DNA of 32,000 nucleotides from Candidatus Saganbacteria bacterium (GTDB lineage Bacteria; Margulisbacteria; WOR-1; JAKLHX01): the NCBI GenBank assembly GCA_026387835.1, contig JAPLKZ010000010.1:266379-298378 (forward strand). Reading direction: 5' to 3'. Position 1 is the stretch's first letter. Each line of letters opens with the position of its first letter. The position numbers were made by a program, and so were the translations under genes. This document shows positions 7,092 through 31,686 of this stretch, in pieces. The notes beneath the pieces were generated by a model. It was given only the letters and a program-made list of their open reading frames with translations, ran no database searches and was not told where the DNA came from.

Positions 7092-7760
7092 TTATAGAGG
7101 CCGTTTTTTGCAAATTCCTGGTTTTCTCGGGTATTTTTCGGGCGTTAGTTTCTCTTTTTTTATGACTACGATCTGATGCAGATACTTTTTACGGTTCTTT
7201 TCATCGTCCAATTCTACCTGTATCGTCCTTTCAAGCTTTCCTCCCATGATCTTCAAAGCTTTTTCCGCGTTCTTTATTTCCGTTTCGATGTCTTTCCCTT
7301 TCATCGCTATAAAGATTCCGCCCGTTTTTACAAAAGGTAGGCAGAGTTCTGATGCGATGTTCAAAGGCGCAAGGGCCCTGCATACGGCCACGTCATATTG
7401 TTCTCTTCTTTTTTTTGCATAATCTTCGGCCCGTTCCCAGATGATGTCTATATCCTTAAACCCGAGGATATCGGCAATATGAGATAGGAATCCCGTCTTC
7501 TTTTTTATACAATCGAGTAAAGTCAATTTTATGTCCGGAAAAAGCACCTTCAAGACCAGCCCCGGAAATCCCGCTCCGGTCCCGATGTCGATTACTTCCG
7601 GATGTCCTGTTGAAAAATCGAAGGCTTCTTTTAGCGTTTCGCAGTCTTTGAAATGCTTGAGGATTATATCATCTTCATCGGTTATGGAAGTTAGGTTGAA
7701 CTTTTTGTTCCAATTAATTAGCTCTTTTGAATAGATTTTAAATCGGGCTTCTTTGTCCAC
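7092..7760 (-). CDS. rsmG: 16S rRNA (guanine527-N7)-methyltransferase RsmG (GidB)
   Basis: SAM-binding DIGTGAGFPGL, the WNKKFNLTSI N-terminal motif, and canonical position upstream of parA-parB. GTG start. Confidence 0.88.
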   Translation of the reverse strand: MDKEARFKIYSKELINWNKKFNLTSITDEDDIILKHFKDCETLKEAFDFSTGHPEVIDIGTGAGFPGLVLKVLFPDIKLTLLDCIKKKTGFLSHIADILGFKDIDIIWERAEDYAKKRREQYDVAVCRALAPLNIASELCLPFVKTGGIFIAMKGKDIETEIKNAEKALKIMGGKLERTIQVELDDEKNRKKYLHQIVVIKKEKLTPEKYPRKPGICKKRPL

Positions 7761-7784
7761 GTGTTATAAGTTATCGGCTAAGAG

Positions 7785-9545
7785 CTAAAATGCCTGGCCG
7801 ATCGAGAAATGCAGAACGCCTTCAGAGAACATCTTATACGCGCCGACACCGAAATCAAGCCTGATGGGACCCATCGGAGTATTAAGTCTGAGACCGAAAC
7901 CCCTGCCGGATATAGAGTTGTCCAAATCGGGCCATCTGGGATGGTACCATGCTTTACCCAGATCATAGAAAAGCACTCCCTGAAATGTTTCGTTGAAAGT
8001 GTAGCGGTATTCGATATTGGCAACATATTTTTTGGTGCCGACCTGCGCCTGGGACGGATCATAGCCCCTGACCGTATTGGCACCGCCAACATAATAGAGC
8101 TCTCCGGGAGGGATATCGCCAACCCCCACGCCTACCCCAAAGTGAAAAGCAAGTACCTGTTTATCTGCCAATTTTAAGAACTGGTTCAAATCGACCGTGT
8201 TCTTTGTGAAATCGGTAGTTATATCCGGCTTGACCTTCCAGCCTTTTGTTATCCCGAAAGTCGCAAACCTTCCCGTGGACGGGTTCATCCAATTATCTCT
8301 TGTGTCATATGCCAGAGAAAACCCTATAGTGTTTGAAGTATAGGGATCAAAATATGTCACTGTCGGTTCGACCCTTTCTGAACCTAGGGTAAGAGTAACA
8401 TTCCATTCATCGTTGACGGGTTTATTTAAACTTAAGTCCCATCCGTTAAATTTCCCGTCGCTTTCAGGCTGGCCGATCAAATATACGTTCTTTCCGATCG
8501 TATACCATCTTCTTACGGTCGCCGAGACCTTATCACCAAGCTTGTCAGGCAGGAACCAGGGATACATGTACCTGAATTGATACGTAGACTGCTGCTGACC
8601 GGCCTGGCCACGGAGCAATATTCCCTGTCCGGTGCCGAAAACGTTCTCCGCACTAAGGTCGAGGAACCCGAACATTCCTTCGCGCTCTCCATAGCCGCCG
8701 CCGAAGTTGATCGTGTTGGTCTTGCTTTCTTTTACCTTAACCAGAAGTATTATCTTGTCAGGAGCAGCCGCAGGTTCGAAGTCCGGAGAAATATCCGAGA
8801 AGAATCCCAGGTTGAATATTCTTTTAAGGTCTTTTGCCAGGACCTTTTCGTTTAAGACCGTACCCGGCTTGCTTTTCATCTCCCTTAAGATCACATAATT
8901 CTTGGTCAGGGTGTTGCCGTCCAAAGCTATCTGTTCTATCGCTCCTTCGACAAGCTTAATTTGAAGGATGTCGGTGTCCGGATCGGTAGTGACGTTGACG
9001 ACCCTTTCAAGGATATATCCGTCCTTGTGATACATATCATCGATGGCCTTGATGTCTTCTTGGATAGATTTGAAAGACATTATCTCCCCCTGCTTTGAAC
9101 GCATCATGGAAAATATCTTTGCCGCGGGATAGACGCTGCATCCTTCTATTGTTATACCCTTCAGGCATGGGTTCTCGACCACATTGAAAGTCACCGCAGT
9201 GCCTTTTCTGGATTTGTTAAGATCCGTTGTCACATCCGCAAAATACCCCATTGCGTATATGGCTTTTACATCATTATTCAGACTTTGCTGGGTCATGCGG
9301 TCTCCAACGCGTATTGATACCTGCTCGAGTATTTTTCCCGACGGGATAATGAAATTACCTTTTATGTTTATTCCGGTTATAAGACTGTCAACGGTCACGG
9401 CATCTGTTTTTGTGACGGCAGGTCCGGTCAAGCTACCAAGATCTGGCGCGGACTTCAGGCTGAAATCTATCGCCAGCGAAATGCCTGACAGCAGAAAAAC
9501 CGCGGCCGAGATGCAAAATATTTTTTTCATGTCTGATACTTTCAT
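7785..9545 (-). CDS. Omp85-family outer-membrane protein assembly factor (BamA/TamA-like; POTRA repeats + C-terminal beta-barrel)
   Basis: Signal peptide, then POTRA-like repeats (for example NIKGNFIIPSGKILEQV, ITIEGCSVYPAAKIF, IALDGNTLTKNYVILREM), then a barrel ending in an aromatic terminal motif (HFSIGQAF). At 586 aa it is TamA-sized. Confidence 0.85.
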   Translation of the reverse strand: MKVSDMKKIFCISAAVFLLSGISLAIDFSLKSAPDLGSLTGPAVTKTDAVTVDSLITGINIKGNFIIPSGKILEQVSIRVGDRMTQQSLNNDVKAIYAMGYFADVTTDLNKSRKGTAVTFNVVENPCLKGITIEGCSVYPAAKIFSMMRSKQGEIMSFKSIQEDIKAIDDMYHKDGYILERVVNVTTDPDTDILQIKLVEGAIEQIALDGNTLTKNYVILREMKSKPGTVLNEKVLAKDLKRIFNLGFFSDISPDFEPAAAPDKIILLVKVKESKTNTINFGGGYGEREGMFGFLDLSAENVFGTGQGILLRGQAGQQQSTYQFRYMYPWFLPDKLGDKVSATVRRWYTIGKNVYLIGQPESDGKFNGWDLSLNKPVNDEWNVTLTLGSERVEPTVTYFDPYTSNTIGFSLAYDTRDNWMNPSTGRFATFGITKGWKVKPDITTDFTKNTVDLNQFLKLADKQVLAFHFGVGVGVGDIPPGELYYVGGANTVRGYDPSQAQVGTKKYVANIEYRYTFNETFQGVLFYDLGKAWYHPRWPDLDNSISGRGFGLRLNTPMGPIRLDFGVGAYKMFSEGVLHFSIGQAF

Positions 9546-26677: not shown

Positions 26678-27795
26678 TAAATAAAATGACCCCACAAAAA
26701 AATGGCGCTGATATAAAATTCATGAGAGAGGCGCTAAAGCTTGCCTCAAAAGTTTTGGGCCTTGTCTCGCCAGATCCCGCAGTCGGAGCGGTGATCGTCA
26801 AGAACGGGAAGATCATCAGCAAAGGATATCATAATAAATTTTCAACCCCCCACGCCGAGGACTATGCGATCAGGAAAGCAGGGAAATCTGCAAAAGGATC
26901 TACCCTTTATATCAACCTTGAGCCCTGCTGCCATTATGGCAACAATCCGCCGTGCACTGATAACATCATAAGGTCCGGGATAAAAAGGGTCGTCGCTGCC
27001 ATGAAAGACCCTAATCCTCTCGTCAACGGCAAGGGCTTTAAAAGGTTGAAAAAGGCCGGAATAAAAGTTGACGTCGGCTTACTTGAAAATGAGGCCGCAG
27101 TGCTCAACGAGTTTTTTGTCGGGCATATCACGACAAAAAGACCTTTTGTGATACTGAAGATGGCGATGAGCCTTGACGGAAAGATTGCCACTAAACTCGG
27201 GGAGAGCCGCTGGATTTCCGGAGATAAATCAAGGGAATTTGTGCATTATTTAAGGGGCATCGTCGATGCGGTTATGGTAGGCATCGGAACTTTGCTTAAG
27301 GATGATCCTCTGCTTAATGTGAGAAATGCAAAAGGCAAAAATCTCACTGACCCGCTGAAGATAATAATCGATCCTGAAGCAAGGGTCCTCCTATGCTCAA
27401 AAGTCCTACAAGACCCGTCAAGGGTTATCGTTGCCGTATCTGAAGCGGCCCCGGCTATCAGGGTAAAAAAGCTGGAAGGCATCGGCGCAAAAGTGATAAA
27501 GGTAAGGTCCCGTAAAGGAGAAATGGACCTTGGCCATCTTTTATCAACCCTTGGAAAACAAAAAATAACAAGTATCATGATCGAGGGCGGCGGGAATCTG
27601 GCGGCCTCTGCCATCGGGACTGGGATTGTCGATAAGGTCGTGTTCATCGTTGCACCAAAGATAATCGGTGGCAAGACGTCCCCTACCCCGGTTGAAGGCA
27701 AAGGGATCGATATCCTGGCGCGCGCACTCCGCCTGAAAAATGTCTCCACAAGAAGGCTTGGCGAGGATATAATAATAGAAGGATATTTAAAATGA
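26674..27795 (+). CDS. ribD: Bifunctional riboflavin biosynthesis protein RibD (pyrimidine deaminase / uracil reductase)
   Basis: Deaminase zinc motifs HAEDYAI and PCCHYGNNPPC. C-terminal reductase domain (MSLDGKIA...ESRWISG). The start is either TTG 26674, overlapping the rpe stop, or ATG 26686. Confidence 0.9.
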   Translation: MINKMTPQKNGADIKFMREALKLASKVLGLVSPDPAVGAVIVKNGKIISKGYHNKFSTPHAEDYAIRKAGKSAKGSTLYINLEPCCHYGNNPPCTDNIIRSGIKRVVAAMKDPNPLVNGKGFKRLKKAGIKVDVGLLENEAAVLNEFFVGHITTKRPFVILKMAMSLDGKIATKLGESRWISGDKSREFVHYLRGIVDAVMVGIGTLLKDDPLLNVRNAKGKNLTDPLKIIIDPEARVLLCSKVLQDPSRVIVAVSEAAPAIRVKKLEGIGAKVIKVRSRKGEMDLGHLLSTLGKQKITSIMIEGGGNLAASAIGTGIVDKVVFIVAPKIIGGKTSPTPVEGKGIDILARALRLKNVSTRRLGEDIIIEGYLK

Positions 27796-28649
27796 AGGTC
27801 CTTGAACTTATTTTCATAACGATGCAACCGTCAAGATGGTGGCGTTGCAGCGTGATACTTATTTCTTTGTTCTTTACCGGAGGAGCATGGAATATTATAA
27901 TCATATTGAAAATGATCGTGGCTTTCCTGATATTTTCTCTCCTCACCGGTGCCATCAATATAATGGACGATATAGCCGACCTTGAAAAAGATAAGCAGGA
28001 CCTATTAAAGCGCACCAAGCCGCTGGCAAGCGGCGAACTGTCCGTGAACAAGGCCGAGTTTTCCGTCGCGATGCTGCTAATAGGCTCGTTTGTCGCCGCT
28101 TTTTTCTTCGGGCCGCTGTTCGGCGCTGCAGCGGTAGGTTATTTCTTCATCGAACTGTGCTATTATCTCTTTTTCAAAAAAATAGCCGTGGTCGACAGCC
28201 TCGCGATCGCTGGTGAAACCTGCATGCTGTTCATTGCCGGTACTGTCGCCTCGGGGAAAGTTCTTTCTTCGTGGCTTTTTGTCTTTGTAGTCGCGTCATC
28301 GGTCTTCCTGGTCTTCTGCGAGAACAAAAGGCGCCTTGCGCTGTCACCGGAAGACCAGGGACTTTTAAAAAAATACGGTGCGGCATCTTTGGGGCGGCTT
28401 ATCGATATCTCCGCTCCTTTTGTCCTTATCATCTATTCTTTATATACTCTGATATCTCCCGACGGGATAAGGTTCAATCTTGTGTATACCGTTCCCTTTG
28501 CCATGTATGCTGTCTACAGGATCATGATGCTGATAGATGAAAAGACCTCTGACAAAGGGTTTGAAAAAATACTGCTAAAGGATAGGAATTTCATTGTTGC
28601 AATTGGATCGTGGGCGGCGCTTCTTCTGGTATTGACCTCGATATTTTAA
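27792..28649 (+). CDS. UbiA-superfamily prenyltransferase, decaprenyl-phosphate phosphoribosyltransferase-like
   Basis: First Asp-rich motif NIMDDIADLEKDKQDLLKRTKPLASG (N-x3-D-x3-D followed by K-R-x-x-P-[LI]-A-S-G), about 8 TM helices, and a second polar loop ENKRRLALSPEDQGLLKKY. ATGA overlap with the ribD stop. Confidence 0.65.
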   Translation: MKVLELIFITMQPSRWWRCSVILISLFFTGGAWNIIIILKMIVAFLIFSLLTGAINIMDDIADLEKDKQDLLKRTKPLASGELSVNKAEFSVAMLLIGSFVAAFFFGPLFGAAAVGYFFIELCYYLFFKKIAVVDSLAIAGETCMLFIAGTVASGKVLSSWLFVFVVASSVFLVFCENKRRLALSPEDQGLLKKYGAASLGRLIDISAPFVLIIYSLYTLISPDGIRFNLVYTVPFAMYAVYRIMMLIDEKTSDKGFEKILLKDRNFIVAIGSWAALLLVLTSIF

Positions 28650-28656
28650 ATTTTTT

Positions 28657-28690
28657 TACTTCCCGCCTTCAAGAAGAAGGAACAGGACCG
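28657..28690. repeat. Left copy of a diverged direct repeat equal to the 3' coding end of pyrB (relic gene end)
   Basis: 31/34 identical to 29458-29491. Read on the minus strand it still encodes VLFLLLEGGK followed by TAA. All differences from the functional pyrB end are at third codon positions. Confidence 0.8.
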
Positions 28691-28714
28691 TTCCGACTCT
28701 TTCACAAAGTGTAA

Positions 28715-29284
28715 TTATTTTAAGTCCTCAACAAGACGGACCGCAATAATGTAGTCACGAAACCACGATGGTTGGGTGTGGCGGTTCTCGATGTGCAAGC
28801 AGCGAAGGGCAAAGGATCTTTTTTCAACGGGGGTTTCTGTCCATTCCCATTTGCTTCCGGATAGTTTACTTCCGATTGTTGCCGCGGCATCTAGCCATTC
28901 TTTTTCGGTTGGGAGCCTAAAACTTCTTCCTGTCATTTCGCTCAACCATTTAGCATATGCCCGGCCATCATTCAAGTTTAAATATATTGCCGTTATTGTT
29001 TGACCGGGAAGGGTTGACACTAGAAGGTTTGCTTTGTCTCCGGTGATCGCGTATTTTGCGCTATCAACAAATTGGCGGAATTGGTCAGTCGTGACCTCCC
29101 CTTTCATTATTCTAATAGGCTTTCCGGTAATTTTTGCGAACGCCGGTATTTGCATGCGCGTTAAGATTGTATCATCCCCTTGTTTTATTCTATCTGCTAC
29201 TGATAATAAGCGCCTAAAGTCTATTCTTGACACGGGTTTCCCGCCGCTCATCCATCCGCTCATGGTCCCTCTAATATTATTCAC
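28715..29284 (-). CDS. Minimal FGE-sulfatase (SUMF1/EgtB/PvdO-type) domain protein, 189 aa
   Basis: Family hallmarks IRIMKGEVTTDQFRQFV, LNLNDGRAYAKWLSEMTGRSFRLPTEKEWLDAA, SKWEWTE, and C-terminal IIAVRLV. GTG start 29284 is preceded by AAGGAG. No signal peptide. Confidence 0.7.
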   Translation of the reverse strand: MNNIRGTMSGWMSGGKPVSRIDFRRLLSVADRIKQGDDTILTRMQIPAFAKITGKPIRIMKGEVTTDQFRQFVDSAKYAITGDKANLLVSTLPGQTITAIYLNLNDGRAYAKWLSEMTGRSFRLPTEKEWLDAAATIGSKLSGSKWEWTETPVEKRSFALRCLHIENRHTQPSWFRDYIIAVRLVEDLK

Positions 29285-29355
29285 TACTTTTCTCCTTTTG
29301 ATATTTTCGCCCTTATCTACGGCCGCTCAAATTAGGGCTCTATTTCCCATCTACA

Positions 29356-29388
29356 TATTTATCGAAAAAAAACATCTGGGATTTCACT
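29356..29388 (-). promoter_or_regulatory. Alternative-sigma-type promoter candidate (AGTGAAAT-N16-CGATAAATA) for the FGE-sulfatase-like gene
   Basis: Minus strand reads AGTGAAAT (29388-29381), 16 nt, CGATAAATA (29364-29356). Confidence 0.5.
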
Positions 29389-29456
29389 TTATTTTGGCGG
29401 ACTTAGGAAAGTCTGGCGGGACGGCGAAAGCCTGTGATTTTCTGATCAGCGGTCTT

Positions 29457-30380
29457 CTACTTACCGCCCTCAAGGAGAAGGAACAGGACCGCCATCCGGA
29501 CGGCGACGCCATTGGTCACCTGGTCAAGGATCACGTTATATGGGCCGTCGGCAACATCGGAGCTGAGTTCGACTCCCCTGTTTATCGGACCGGGATGCAT
29601 GACAATAATATCCTTTTTAGCCTTTTTGAGCCTTTCCGCCGTGACGCCGTAAAGCTTGTGGTATTCAAGAAGCGACGGAAAAAGACCGCCCTTCTGCCTT
29701 TCAAGCTGGATGCGCAGCACATTCACAAAATCCGCGTTCTCAAGCTCCTTGTCCAGGTCATATGAAACTTTCGCGCCGGTCTCTTCGATGCCTTTCGGGA
29801 TGAGCGTCGGAGGACCGACGAGAGAGACCGAAGCTCCGAGCTTTAAAAGCCCCCACGTGTTGCTGCGCGCGACACGGCTGTGCAGAATATCTCCGACGAT
29901 CACCACTTTTTTGCCTTTCACGGAACCTTTTTTCTCTATCATCGTGAAGATATCCAGAAGCGCCTGGGTCGGATGTTCGTTGCAGCCGTCACCTGCATTT
30001 ATGACGGGACCGGAAACATGCCCGGCTATCAGGTGCGGAGCGCCTGCCATGCTGTGCCGCATTATTATGGCATCGGTCCCGATAGCTTCAAGATTTCTGG
30101 CGGTATCTATCAGTGTCTCGCCTTTCACGACGCTGCTGGTGCCGGCGGCAATGCTGTTGGTCGATGCCGAAAGAAGTTTTGCCGCTGTTTCAAAAGAATT
30201 CTTTGTCCGCGTGCTCGGCTCGTAAAAAAGCGTGGTCACTATCTTGCCGGAAAGCGCGGGAACGGTCCTCATCGGCCGCGAGAGGATCTCTTTCATGCTT
30301 TCTGCGGTGTTGAGTATCTGATTGATCTCGCCGGCGGACAGTTCTTTGAGACCGAGGAGGTCTTTTGACTTTAGCGCCAT
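29457..30380 (-). CDS. pyrB: Aspartate carbamoyltransferase catalytic subunit PyrB
   Basis: FYEPSTRTKNSFE, MRHSMAG, CNEHPTQALLD, and HPGPINRGVE motifs. 307 aa. Confidence 0.93.
   Translation of the reverse strand: MALKSKDLLGLKELSAGEINQILNTAESMKEILSRPMRTVPALSGKIVTTLFYEPSTRTKNSFETAAKLLSASTNSIAAGTSSVVKGETLIDTARNLEAIGTDAIIMRHSMAGAPHLIAGHVSGPVINAGDGCNEHPTQALLDIFTMIEKKGSVKGKKVVIVGDILHSRVARSNTWGLLKLGASVSLVGPPTLIPKGIEETGAKVSYDLDKELENADFVNVLRIQLERQKGGLFPSLLEYHKLYGVTAERLKKAKKDIIVMHPGPINRGVELSSDVADGPYNVILDQVTNGVAVRMAVLFLLLEGGK
29458..29491. repeat. Right copy of the direct repeat (functional 3' end of pyrB)
   Basis: Partner of 28657-28690 at an offset of 801 nt. Encodes the terminal VLFLLLEGGK of PyrB. 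Confidence 0.8.
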
Positions 30381-30400
30381 GTTGATTTTTGCCTTCGGTT

Positions 30401-30409
30401 ATTATATCA
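30401..30409 (-). promoter_or_regulatory. Extended -10 element (TGATATAAT) upstream of pyrB
   Basis: Minus strand reads TGATATAAT followed by 20 nt, then ATG 30380. It lies in the 43-bp pyrB/ackA divergent region and overlaps a plus-strand TATTAT (30400-30405) that could serve ackA. Confidence 0.4.
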
Positions 30410-30423
30410 TACACAAGGAAGCA

Positions 30424-31686
30424 ATGAAAATCTTAGCTCTCAACTGCGGAAGCTCCTCCGTAAAATACCAGCTCTACGATTGGACCCAGAAAAAGGTAAT
30501 TTGTAAGGGGATGGCCGACCGCGTCGGACTTCCCTCGGGTTCACTATGTCACGAAGTGCCCGGGAAGCCGGACCTGGTCCTTGAAAAGGATTGCCCAAAC
30601 CATTGCGTTGCGATCGACCAGATACTTAAAGTGCTTGTTGATCCCGGTTACGGCATGATCGCGGATATAAAAGAGATATCCGCCGTGGGCCACAGGGTAG
30701 TGCACGGCGGGGAAAAATTCCAGCGCTCGGTAAAGATAGATGATGACGTGCTCGCGGCAATAAAAGAAGTCAAGGACCTTGCCCCGCTGCATAACCCTCC
30801 CAACATCGAGGGGATTGAAGCCGCAATGAAAGTCCTTCCGGAAGTCCCCCATGTAGCTGTATTTGATACCGCATTTCACCAGACAATGCCGCCGGAAGCA
30901 TATCTGTATGCCGTGCCTTTTGAATGGTACAAGATGTATGGCGTAAGGAAATACGGATTTCACGGCACTTCCCATCTTTATGTCTCAAAAAGGGCCGCGG
31001 TACTTTTGAAGAAGAAGCCCACGGAAACAAATGTAATAACTCTTCATATAGGCAACGGGGTCAGTGTAGCGGCTATTAAAAACGGTGTCTCGATCGACAC
31101 ATCAATGGGACTGACTCCTCTTGCCGGCGCGATAATGGGGACCCGGAGCGGCGATCTTGATCCTGCGATCGTCATTTTTATGATCGAGAAAGAAGGTTTC
31201 TACGCGAAAGAGCTTGATAAAATTCTTAACAACAAAAGCGGCTTGCTGGGTATAACCGGCAAATACTCGGACAGACGCGAGATCGAAAAAGCTTCCGCCG
31301 CAGGCGATGAAAGGTGCCGGATGGCAATAGACATGGAAGCTTACAGGCTCAAAAAGATAATCGGTTCATACATCGCTTCGATAGGACAGGTAGACGCCAT
31401 CGTATTTACCGCGGGCGCAGGCGAGATGGACGCAAATCTCAGGGCCCGGACGCTGGCAGGGCTGGAATCTTTGGGGATTAAATTCGATCCCGTCAAAAAC
31501 GGGAACGCAAAGACCCACGGGGTCGAATCCGTAATATCGGCTGACGATTCAAAGATAAAGATCTTTGTTATTCCGACCAATGAAGAGCAGGTGTTCATCG
31601 AGGACGTGGTCGCGATCATTGAAGGCAGGTACGACATTCACACAAAGTTCACCTATTCTTTCCAAAGCGAGGATTACAAAATATGA
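30424..31686 (+). CDS. ackA: Acetate kinase
   Basis: MKILALNCGSSSVKYQLYD N-terminus, GHRVVHGG, FDTAFHQTMP, and YGFHGTSH motifs. The ORF-track start at 30322 would add 34 residues encoded antisense to the pyrB 5' end. ATG 30424 is preceded by AAGGAAG. Confidence 0.92.
   Translation: MKILALNCGSSSVKYQLYDWTQKKVICKGMADRVGLPSGSLCHEVPGKPDLVLEKDCPNHCVAIDQILKVLVDPGYGMIADIKEISAVGHRVVHGGEKFQRSVKIDDDVLAAIKEVKDLAPLHNPPNIEGIEAAMKVLPEVPHVAVFDTAFHQTMPPEAYLYAVPFEWYKMYGVRKYGFHGTSHLYVSKRAAVLLKKKPTETNVITLHIGNGVSVAAIKNGVSIDTSMGLTPLAGAIMGTRSGDLDPAIVIFMIEKEGFYAKELDKILNNKSGLLGITGKYSDRREIEKASAAGDERCRMAIDMEAYRLKKIIGSYIASIGQVDAIVFTAGAGEMDANLRARTLAGLESLGIKFDPVKNGNAKTHGVESVISADDSKIKIFVIPTNEEQVFIEDVVAIIEGRYDIHTKFTYSFQSEDYKI

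Follow-up and report, generated by a model that had tools for sequence, protein, structure and literature searches.

Remnants of integrative elements that are flanked by attachment (att) sites are found, for example, in the 3′ end of fda in Streptococcus thermophilus, and staphylococcal cassette chromosome (SCC) and pseudo-SCC cassettes, which span kilobases to tens of kilobases and need Ccr serine recombinases from the same genus, occupy the 3′ end of rlmH (orfX). Cis-mobilizable elements (CIMEs) are defined by att sites that they have in common with a cognate integrase-bearing element able to act in trans (PMC6323972). Displaced ‘orphan’ 3′ ends in arrays of rearrangement hotspot (Rhs), contact-dependent inhibition (CDI) and type VI secretion system (T6SS) effectors have been attributed to homology-facilitated illegitimate recombination (PMC5361080), a process also defined in PMC3240628. 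Here we analyse a 32-kb stretch of contig JAPLKZ010000010.1 from a Candidatus Saganbacteria bacterium (hereafter, the window), in which the intact end of pyrB and a displaced second copy of a pyrB 3′ end bracket a segment that holds one gene, a compact FGE-sulfatase-like open reading frame (ORF) that we call the cargo gene. The locus is clearly a fairly ordinary scar of horizontal gene acquisition, an event of a known kind.

In the window, pyrB (positions 29457–30380, minus strand) encodes an intact aspartate carbamoyltransferase catalytic subunit of 307 aa, which matches NF002032 at 1.5e-118 and contains both OTCace Pfam domains. It converges on a UbiA-family prenyltransferase-like gene (27792–28649, plus strand; PF01040), which is the direct neighbour of pyrB in relatives. 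The cargo gene (28715–29284, minus strand; PF03781) begins with GTG, encodes 189 aa and lies on the same strand as pyrB, about 170 nt downstream of it. The relatives of its pyrB place the window in Margulisiibacteriota/Saganbacteria, and the exact window proteins are on record at NCBI as MCX5749684–MCX5749686. A repeat finder applied to positions 27000–31000 returned a single outstanding direct repeat, 28654–28690 versus 29455–29491, with a length of 37 nt, identity at 33 of the 37 positions (89%) and a spacing of 801 nt; the remaining repeats in these 4 kb were 14–24 nt long and weaker, the next-best families being 19–24 nt at 71–84%. Read on the minus strand, the right copy (29455–29491) comprises the functional last 11 codons of pyrB with the TAG stop, plus 2 nt, ends …VLFLLLEGGK then TAG, and would represent an attL-like junction. 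The left copy (28654–28690) is a displaced, non-functional pyrB 3′ end that also reads VLFLLLEGGK and remains in frame (…VGTVLFLLLEGGK then TAA), and its stop lies 6 nt from that of the UbiA-like gene. The two copies coincide exactly with the ends of the extra DNA and leave the pyrB ORF intact; the cargo gene is the single ORF in the 766 nt between them.

Every coordinate of this repeat that had been given in a first-pass annotation, made from the sequence alone, was confirmed, together with the 801-nt offset, the identity of the repeat as a pyrB end and the in-frame TAA. The internal mismatches between the copies fall at 28662/29463, 28668/29469 and 28674/29475, and the stop codons differ at 28656/29457; as the same annotation had noted, all four differences occupy third codon positions in the pyrB frame, one of them in the stop codon. 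When a 33-mer from the left copy was searched for, the window contained two occurrences, with 0 and 3 mismatches, and 100 dinucleotide-preserving shuffles contained none, which rules out a chance match and bears out the earlier statement to that effect. An assembly chimera was also ruled out, as the same repeat at the same offset is present in six independent Logan assemblies (L001–L004, L006 and L007). Eleven contigs encoding an identical pyrB are on record; in all eight that were fetched the FGE-like gene follows pyrB, and the repeat recurs at the same offset in each of the six that are long enough. The other two (L005 and L008) are shorter contigs, on which pyrB is followed by the cargo gene and then by the contig end. 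Of the eleven, every contig that extends far enough carries the insert, and none of those seen for this strain has an empty site; at the level of assemblies, the insert is therefore fixed.

These results also bear on the idea that the left copy has a function of its own and no historical link to pyrB, as a terminator or small RNA would, or else is a chance match or an assembly chimera. A terminator-like hairpin with a T-rich tail is indeed present on the minus strand at 28694–28679, just after the cargo gene, and in the closest relative, L095, a hairpin plus U5 terminator includes the pyrB end. However, shuffles exclude chance, the pyrB frame and stop are kept, the sequence is identical to that of a real pyrB allele, and the structure of the locus recurs in six assemblies; moreover, neither repeat copy folds better than shuffled sequence (z-scores of 0.01 to −1.08), and no Rfam match was obtained at E ≤ 1. 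We find this explanation barely credible and, as an account of where the sequence came from, refuted. The displaced pyrB end may have a secondary role as a terminator for the cargo gene. A separate sigma-70-like site (TTGAAG, 18 nt, TAAAAT) occurs on the minus strand at 28643–28672; it starts inside the displaced pyrB end, is directed antisense into the UbiA-like gene and is a consensus match only.

The corresponding site is empty in relatives, an arrangement that the first-pass annotation had suggested looking for. Distant relatives keep the order ackA, pyrB, UbiA, ribD, rpe, PASTA, kinase, and in them pyrB runs directly into the UbiA gene. The stops of the two genes are 8 nt apart in L095 (pyrB 92% at the amino-acid level) and 1–3 nt apart in L009 and L010 (80–82%), and pyrB overlaps the UbiA gene by 27 nt in L096/L097 (90%). 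The contig P0016, known from its gene table only, also lists pyrB and UbiA without an intervening gene, so that at least four empty-site lineages are represented by DNA in hand and one solely by a gene table. Because pyrB and UbiA abut or overlap in these relatives, the extra 0.8 kb is derived, a true insertion; the position of the left copy is exactly that of the native pyrB end in relatives.

A highly improbable alternative is that the three-gene arrangement is ancestral and that the relatives lost the FGE-like gene through deletion between the repeats. Deletion between 34-nt direct repeats would restore a clean pyrB/UbiA junction, but independent and precise losses would be required in at least four lineages of different depth, and no FGE-like module is present at the locus of any relative. 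In addition, a copy of the pyrB end that abuts UbiA at the native spacing is a sign that pyrB once ended there.

Two features of the junction in relatives are recorded here in their own right. At the position of the pyrB stop, L096 (6925–6960) and L097 (2599–2634) carry CAG, which makes the ORF 12 codons longer (…EAGKQEKRLKDVRQHQ) and gives rise to the 27-nt overlap with the convergent UbiA-like gene. In L095, the pyrB 3′ end (1120–1175) forms a long hairpin with UUUUU and then AAAAAA behind it (z-score of only −1.1), which resembles a bidirectional intrinsic terminator that would serve both convergent genes, pyrB and UbiA. The insertion in the window has moved the downstream half of such a hairpin away from the functional end of pyrB.

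Comparison with L095 indicates that the two copies derive from different pyrB alleles. The left copy is identical to the L095 pyrB end at 34 of 34 positions, the sole difference being the stop codon (TAA versus TAG), and the three synonymous sites that separate the right copy from the left one are also those that separate it from L095. Over the whole gene, the window and L095 pyrB sequences are collinear for 924 nt and 81% identical, with 174 differences spread evenly along the gene, 138 of them at third positions (45% of third positions); the L096 pyrB is about equally distant from both. When this window/L095 alignment was divided into 34-nt windows (n = 888), none was identical, 0.8% had at most one mismatch and 7% had at most three. 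Other relatives encode the same terminal residues with different codons, and the stretch is therefore under no general constraint at the nucleotide level. The non-coding copy shows 0–1 changes relative to L095 and the coding copy three, the opposite of what drift predicts (rough binomial p ~0.03–0.05, before an unchanged L095 branch is also required). On this basis, we conclude from the alignments that two different pyrB 3′ ends recombined to form the repeat and that one of them was on incoming DNA. The earlier proposal of an insertion at the pyrB 3′ end, bracketed by ends of different alleles, is upheld by the empty sites in relatives and by the 34/34 identity to L095.

The same comparison makes an in-situ duplication improbable. 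Under this explanation, a resident FGE-like module was copied into the junction of pyrB and UbiA by a template switch during replication or by repair, the last 35–47 nt of pyrB became a long target duplication, and the two copies then diverged by drift without any foreign allele. The genome does contain three other copies of the module that could have served as templates, and a recombinase would be unnecessary. However, the non-coding copy should decay faster, yet it carries 0–1 changes against the three in the coding copy, and the L095 branch must also have stayed unchanged. The nearest paralogue, at 59% amino-acid and 78% nucleotide identity, offers no recent source within the genome, and nothing else matches the module’s flanks of 82 and 24 nt.

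Which of the two copies is native depends on where the crossover took place, and two geometries were considered. In the first (S1), the crossover would lie in the shared GGTCCTGTTCCTTCT, the left copy would be native and the functional end would have been brought by the insert. In the second (S2), it would fall at the stop codon, within AAGTA or beside it; all of pyrB would then be native and the left copy would be the incoming arm. Under S2, each parent is uniform with respect to L095, the arm being L095-like throughout and the resident pyrB end ordinarily diverged; when the ends of the insert are joined as a circle, they restore an L095-type end, including the TAG stop. Under S1, the native end would match L095 by coincidence, next to a UbiA gene with just 69% nucleotide identity. 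We cautiously favour S2, on 34 nt and one reference allele, and this dependence counts against the reading built on it below. Arrival of the left copy on the incoming DNA thus appears to fit at least as well as an insert that brought a replacement gene end. That replacement had been part of the first-pass annotation: its insertion stands, and its replacement end is not established, since the left copy is the one that matches L095 at 34/34 and the functional copy differs at three sites.

Extension of the repeat flanks, another suggestion of that annotation, gave a firm result for the 37 nt at 33/37 and a tentative one beyond them. Directly upstream of the part that aligns without gaps, the sequence is GTCGGAA-CG in the left copy (28691–28700, minus strand), GTCAGAATGGCG in L095/L096 and GTCCGGATGGCG in the window pyrB. 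A possible extension of the left copy can be aligned to the L095/L096 sequence with a 3-nt in-frame gap and one substitution, at about six of seven matches (rough estimate, p ~0.01). With this gap, the extension may again be L095/L096-like, with an AGA-type codon rather than the CGG of the window pyrB.

The account that we prefer, tentatively and with somewhat less than even confidence, is that the locus is the scar of one additive recombination, in which an 801-bp unit was placed at the pyrB stop by a Campbell-type crossover with a pyrB-end arm. The unit would consist of the 82-nt spacer, the conserved leader, the FGE-sulfatase-like gene, a short tail and one copy of a pyrB 3′ end, and its point of entry would be the stop codon of pyrB, where that gene borders the convergent UbiA-like gene. 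The incoming DNA would have carried its own pyrB 3′ end of about 35–47 nt, from a different allele. A single crossover between this copy and the resident pyrB end, as occurs when a small circular or non-replicating DNA integrates, would generate two hybrid att-like direct repeats and leave the pyrB protein unchanged. We infer a circular intermediate and place the crossover, by preference, in or next to AAGTA, which would make the displaced copy an arm from an L095-like lineage. As for the enzyme, our first guess would be a site-specific recombinase that acted in trans or has since been lost, and our second would be recombination by the host through short homology. The repeat copies share at most 16 contiguous nt of perfect identity, which is short for a RecA-dependent crossover and therefore leaves room for a dedicated recombinase. 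In published terms, the unit would be CIME-like, with flanking att sites and no recombinase. Three sequences define these predictions as search keys: the repeat end, GGTCCTGTTCCTTCTNCTTGANGGCGGNAAGTA; the synthetic circle junction, …GAAGGCGGGAAGTAG abutting AAGACCGCTGATC; and the synthetic empty-site junction, …GAGGGCGGTAAGTA abutting AAAAAATTTAAAATATCG, with an alternative that carries the left-copy variants.

Homology-facilitated illegitimate recombination would arrive at a similar structure by another route, a possibility that we take seriously without favouring it. Here, linear DNA from a related Saganbacteria strain with an FGE-like module downstream of pyrB would have been anchored through the donor pyrB, and its far end would have joined illegitimately about 35–47 nt before the recipient pyrB stop; the donor pyrB end would have become functional and the recipient end displaced downstream as a relic, with neither a recombinase nor a mobile element involved. 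No recombinase is encoded anywhere in the 32 kb, the relic occupies the native position beside UbiA, pyrB is conserved at 90–92% amino-acid identity among the lineages and is a usable anchor, and recA is present in the same genome. The same geometry, a displaced native 3′ end after acquired DNA, has been proposed for Rhs/T6SS orphan ends (PMC5361080). The amino-acid identity of the window pyrB is 91.5% to L095 and 90.2% to L096, versus 94.8% between L095 and L096, and the corresponding values for UbiA are 75.1% and 69.5%, versus 75.8%; the window pyrB is thus relatively more distant than UbiA, a weak hint that pyrB was replaced. By contrast, the 34/34 identity of a native relic to L095 would have to be a coincidence, estimated at 1–5% at best and seen in 0 of 888 windows empirically, when an adjacent native gene is much more diverged (UbiA, 69% at the nucleotide level). 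Nor was a donor lineage found in which pyrB is followed by an FGE-like gene; the closest cargo homologue is the paralogue in the same genome. The far junction offers only an ambiguous GTC.GAA similarity with a 3-nt gap, and pyrB shows no mosaic boundary relative to L095 or L096, which are too distant (81% at the nucleotide level) to reveal one. Taken together, these observations leave the mechanism poised between an att-like crossover and homology-facilitated illegitimate recombination.

Several further results weigh against the Campbell-type crossover that we prefer. No integrase, transposase, other recombinase or reverse transcriptase was detected in the insert or among the ORFs of at least 120 aa in the 32 kb, and the window contains no tRNA. 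A downstream copy of the gene’s own pyrB end was found at 0 of the 89 pyrB loci outside this strain, and a degenerate VLFLLLEGGK-plus-stop pattern had 0 matches in IMG/VR and JGI metagenomes. The insert matched nothing in plasmid and phage collections, and no empty-site contig with the strain’s exact pyrB was seen among the contigs of this strain. The 0.8-kb unit holds no pseudogene remnants of a larger element and, to our knowledge, is far below the size of known att-flanked non-autonomous elements. Finally, the other three paralogous modules lack target-derived flanking repeats, and there is therefore no sign of a shared insertion mechanism.

Other searches had similar outcomes. A looser 22-mer gave 12 JGI matches, of which only one was a pyrB end (the known L096 contig) and the rest were unrelated, and the cargo protein found nothing in IMG/VR besides one relative at 29%. 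The first-pass annotation had suggested a search for the 34-mer next to integrases; the pattern was absent from IMG/VR and JGI contigs outside pyrB. Direct repeats with an intact target gene and an empty site in relatives were both found, as expected of an integrative element, and a recombinase gene was not. The earlier reading of the insert as a decayed integrative element is not established by these data, given no recombinase, 0 of 89 loci with the repeat, no viral, plasmid or JGI match and no excised variant. What that annotation had said of the lack of an integrase or transposase in the insert held true for the insert and for the 32 kb as a whole.

The event looks like a one-off, because the scan of 89 loci and the IMG/VR, JGI, plasmid and phage searches came up empty. 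Because the present-day unit encodes no recombinase, it can be no more than a non-autonomous cassette, if not an immobile scar. We consider it very doubtful that the 801-bp unit is a live recombinase-less cassette, with the pyrB-end arm of about 45 bp as its attachment site, that moves between related Saganbacteria in the form of a small circle, enters at the pyrB stop through a chromosomal recombinase and belongs to a lineage-specific, dispersing family represented four times in this genome.

Three further candidates were rejected. The pyrB 3′ end as a general integration hotspot was ruled out by the 0 of 89 outside loci with a downstream pyrB-end copy. An insertion sequence, transposon or miniature inverted-repeat transposable element was ruled out because there are no terminal inverted repeats, the duplication is 34–47 nt long and diverged, and there is no transposase; the repeat finder detected no inverted repeats that pair the ends of the insert. 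An integron cassette was ruled out because the window has no attC-like structure (folds not significant) and no intI or attI.

The cargo protein is assigned to the FGE-sulfatase family (PF03781) by its score of 46.1 bits, above the Pfam gathering cut-off of 23.3 (6e-12), although the match covers only positions 25–141 of the 255 in the profile. The motifs RLPTEKEW and WEWT are hallmarks of the FGE-sulfatase/C-type-lectin-like fold, here in a compact form. NCBI names the protein a SUMF1/EgtB/PvdO-family enzyme, and its NCBIfam matches to SenA, OvoA and PvdO fall far below the family cut-offs. An exhaustive search returned 1804 relatives at E ≤ 0.001, many of them 170–260 aa long and others occurring as repeats inside giant proteins. 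The structure model is poor (predicted local distance difference test score of 59), with weak fold matches to PvdO, ToxD, pFGE and OvoA. An alternative ATG start at 29263 gives a 182-aa form, which is the one called in Logan.

Upstream of the cargo gene, a simple sigma-70 scan found no promoter-like site, contrary to the ‘own promoter motif’ of the first-pass annotation, although a leader of about 110 nt is conserved. This leader (29285–29374, minus strand), presumably a promoter plus 5′ untranslated region, is common to three paralogous modules elsewhere in the genome. The same genome thus has four such modules, each a leader of about 110 nt followed by an FGE-like ORF of about 186–193 aa, with 45–59% amino-acid identity among them: the window module at 28715–29374, one at L089 7903–8582, between queA-vapBC and tgt, and a tandem pair at L110 3222–3897 and 3898–4561, between yajQ and lysC, in which the next leader begins immediately past the previous stop codon. 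The leader motif common to the four is GTGAAATCCC…TTCGATA.ATAT.TAGAT…AGGAGAAAA, or with its middle stretch in full form GTGAAATCCC … TTCGATACATATATAGAT … AGGAGAAAA; the fold of the shared leader is not significant, with a consensus of only −3 kcal/mol and few covarying pairs. The window module is 78% identical to its nearest paralogue at the nucleotide level over about 29394–28830, with weaker similarity as far as the stop codon, and 59% identical in amino acids.

The flanks of the window module match nothing, neither the 82 nt by the pyrB stop nor the 24 nt before the left copy. The first of these is a unique spacer between the pyrB stop and the conserved leader (29375–29456, minus strand), which opens with GACCGC; these bases and the GCGGTC that begins the right copy make up an inverted repeat. 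The second includes a short spacer from the cargo stop to the displaced pyrB end (28701–28714, minus strand) with no similarity to anything fetched. Neither the module nor the leader motif was found in relatives among about 100 fetched loci. The module family thus appears to be lineage-specific and accessory, because four members are present in this genome and none at the loci of relatives, where the corresponding sites are empty or hold other cargo.

Some observations on the paralogous sites stand apart from the pyrB locus. The divergent yajQ–lysC spacer is variable: it is empty, at 58 nt, in L117 (4943–5000), contains a HTH_32 transposase-like gene and an ORF of no known kind in L115/L116 (L115 734–2935), and holds the two FGE-like modules in the genome of the window (L110 3209–4663). 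No flanking target repeat was seen at this spot. At the L089 site, 7128–7149 and 7755–7776 are similar at 17 of 22 positions, which relates the queA 3′ end to the vapB start at the two ends of the vapBC pair; this similarity (19–22 nt) is probably due to chance, the second copy being conserved antitoxin coding sequence. An unexplained match of 17 of 18 positions links L089 7827–7844, in the spacer upstream of the FGE-like paralogue, to 9142–9159, inside tgt.

The C-terminal 38 or so codons of the cargo gene (28715–28830), from WEWT to the final VRL(V/I)EDL, differ between paralogues much more than the remainder of the protein does, and this stretch is the position varied by diversity-generating retroelements (DGRs) in targets of the C-type-lectin fold. 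No reverse transcriptase or template repeat that could account for the variable C terminus was found in the available sequences, and the window and the fetched loci contain no second copy of the 3′ part of the cargo gene that could act as a DGR template. The cargo gene, with its FGE/C-type-lectin-like fold and variable C-terminal segment, was rejected as a DGR target, as the window has no reverse transcriptase and the differences between the repeats are not adenine-specific.

In composition, the insert is unremarkable, with a GC content of 0.443 versus 0.469 ± 0.027 in windows of the same size, in agreement with the lack of a compositional difference noted in the first-pass annotation; the GC content at third codon positions of the cargo gene (0.45) is below that of its neighbours (0.51–0.64). 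The ORFs of at least 120 aa in the 32 kb are all housekeeping genes, among them a two-component system, parAB, rsmG, BamA/TamB-like, ruvB, uvrD, carA, a Ser/Thr kinase, rpe and ribD. In ackA, a segment after the conserved N terminus (…LPSGSLCHEVPGKPDLVLEKDCPNHCV…; window 30514–30610, codons about 31–62) is much shorter in the L095/L096 orthologues.

The locus provides a clean, well-bounded case in which an accessory gene was added at a tight junction of the core genome in an uncultivated phylum (Margulisiibacteriota/Saganbacteria), with both flanking genes undamaged. The displaced end has the sequence of an allele from another sampled lineage and thereby records an exchange of DNA between lineages that are about 19% apart in pyrB. 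The importance would be greater if the unit were a mobile recombinase-less cassette; nothing found here shows mobility.

Among known systems, integron cassettes resemble this locus in being single-gene units of about 0.8 kb that would circularize with one recombination site. Unlike them, the unit has no attC-like palindrome and no associated intI or attI, carries its own leader or promoter, and is flanked by repeats derived from the target gene. The likeness to SCC is that recombinase-less cassettes can sit between diverged direct repeats of the target 3′ end with the gene intact; in contrast to SCC, the insert is only 0.8 kb, and no such recombinase or array is seen here. As in Rhs, CDI and T6SS arrays, acquired DNA follows a conserved gene, the old 3′ end has been pushed downstream as a fragment and mobile-element genes are lacking. 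Those arrays, however, replace a variable toxin tip and add an immunity gene, whereas here the product is unchanged, the fragment is 34–47 nt long and the cargo is unrelated to the target. The locus departs from CIMEs in that no cognate integrase-bearing element for this site is known or was found, the unit is 0.8 kb with one gene and no remnants, the repeats differ at 4 of 37 positions and there is no evidence of mobilization. Like CIMEs, it consists of extra DNA, devoid of integration or transfer genes, between direct repeats, one of them formed by the 3′ end of a housekeeping gene with an intact ORF, at a site that is empty in relatives.

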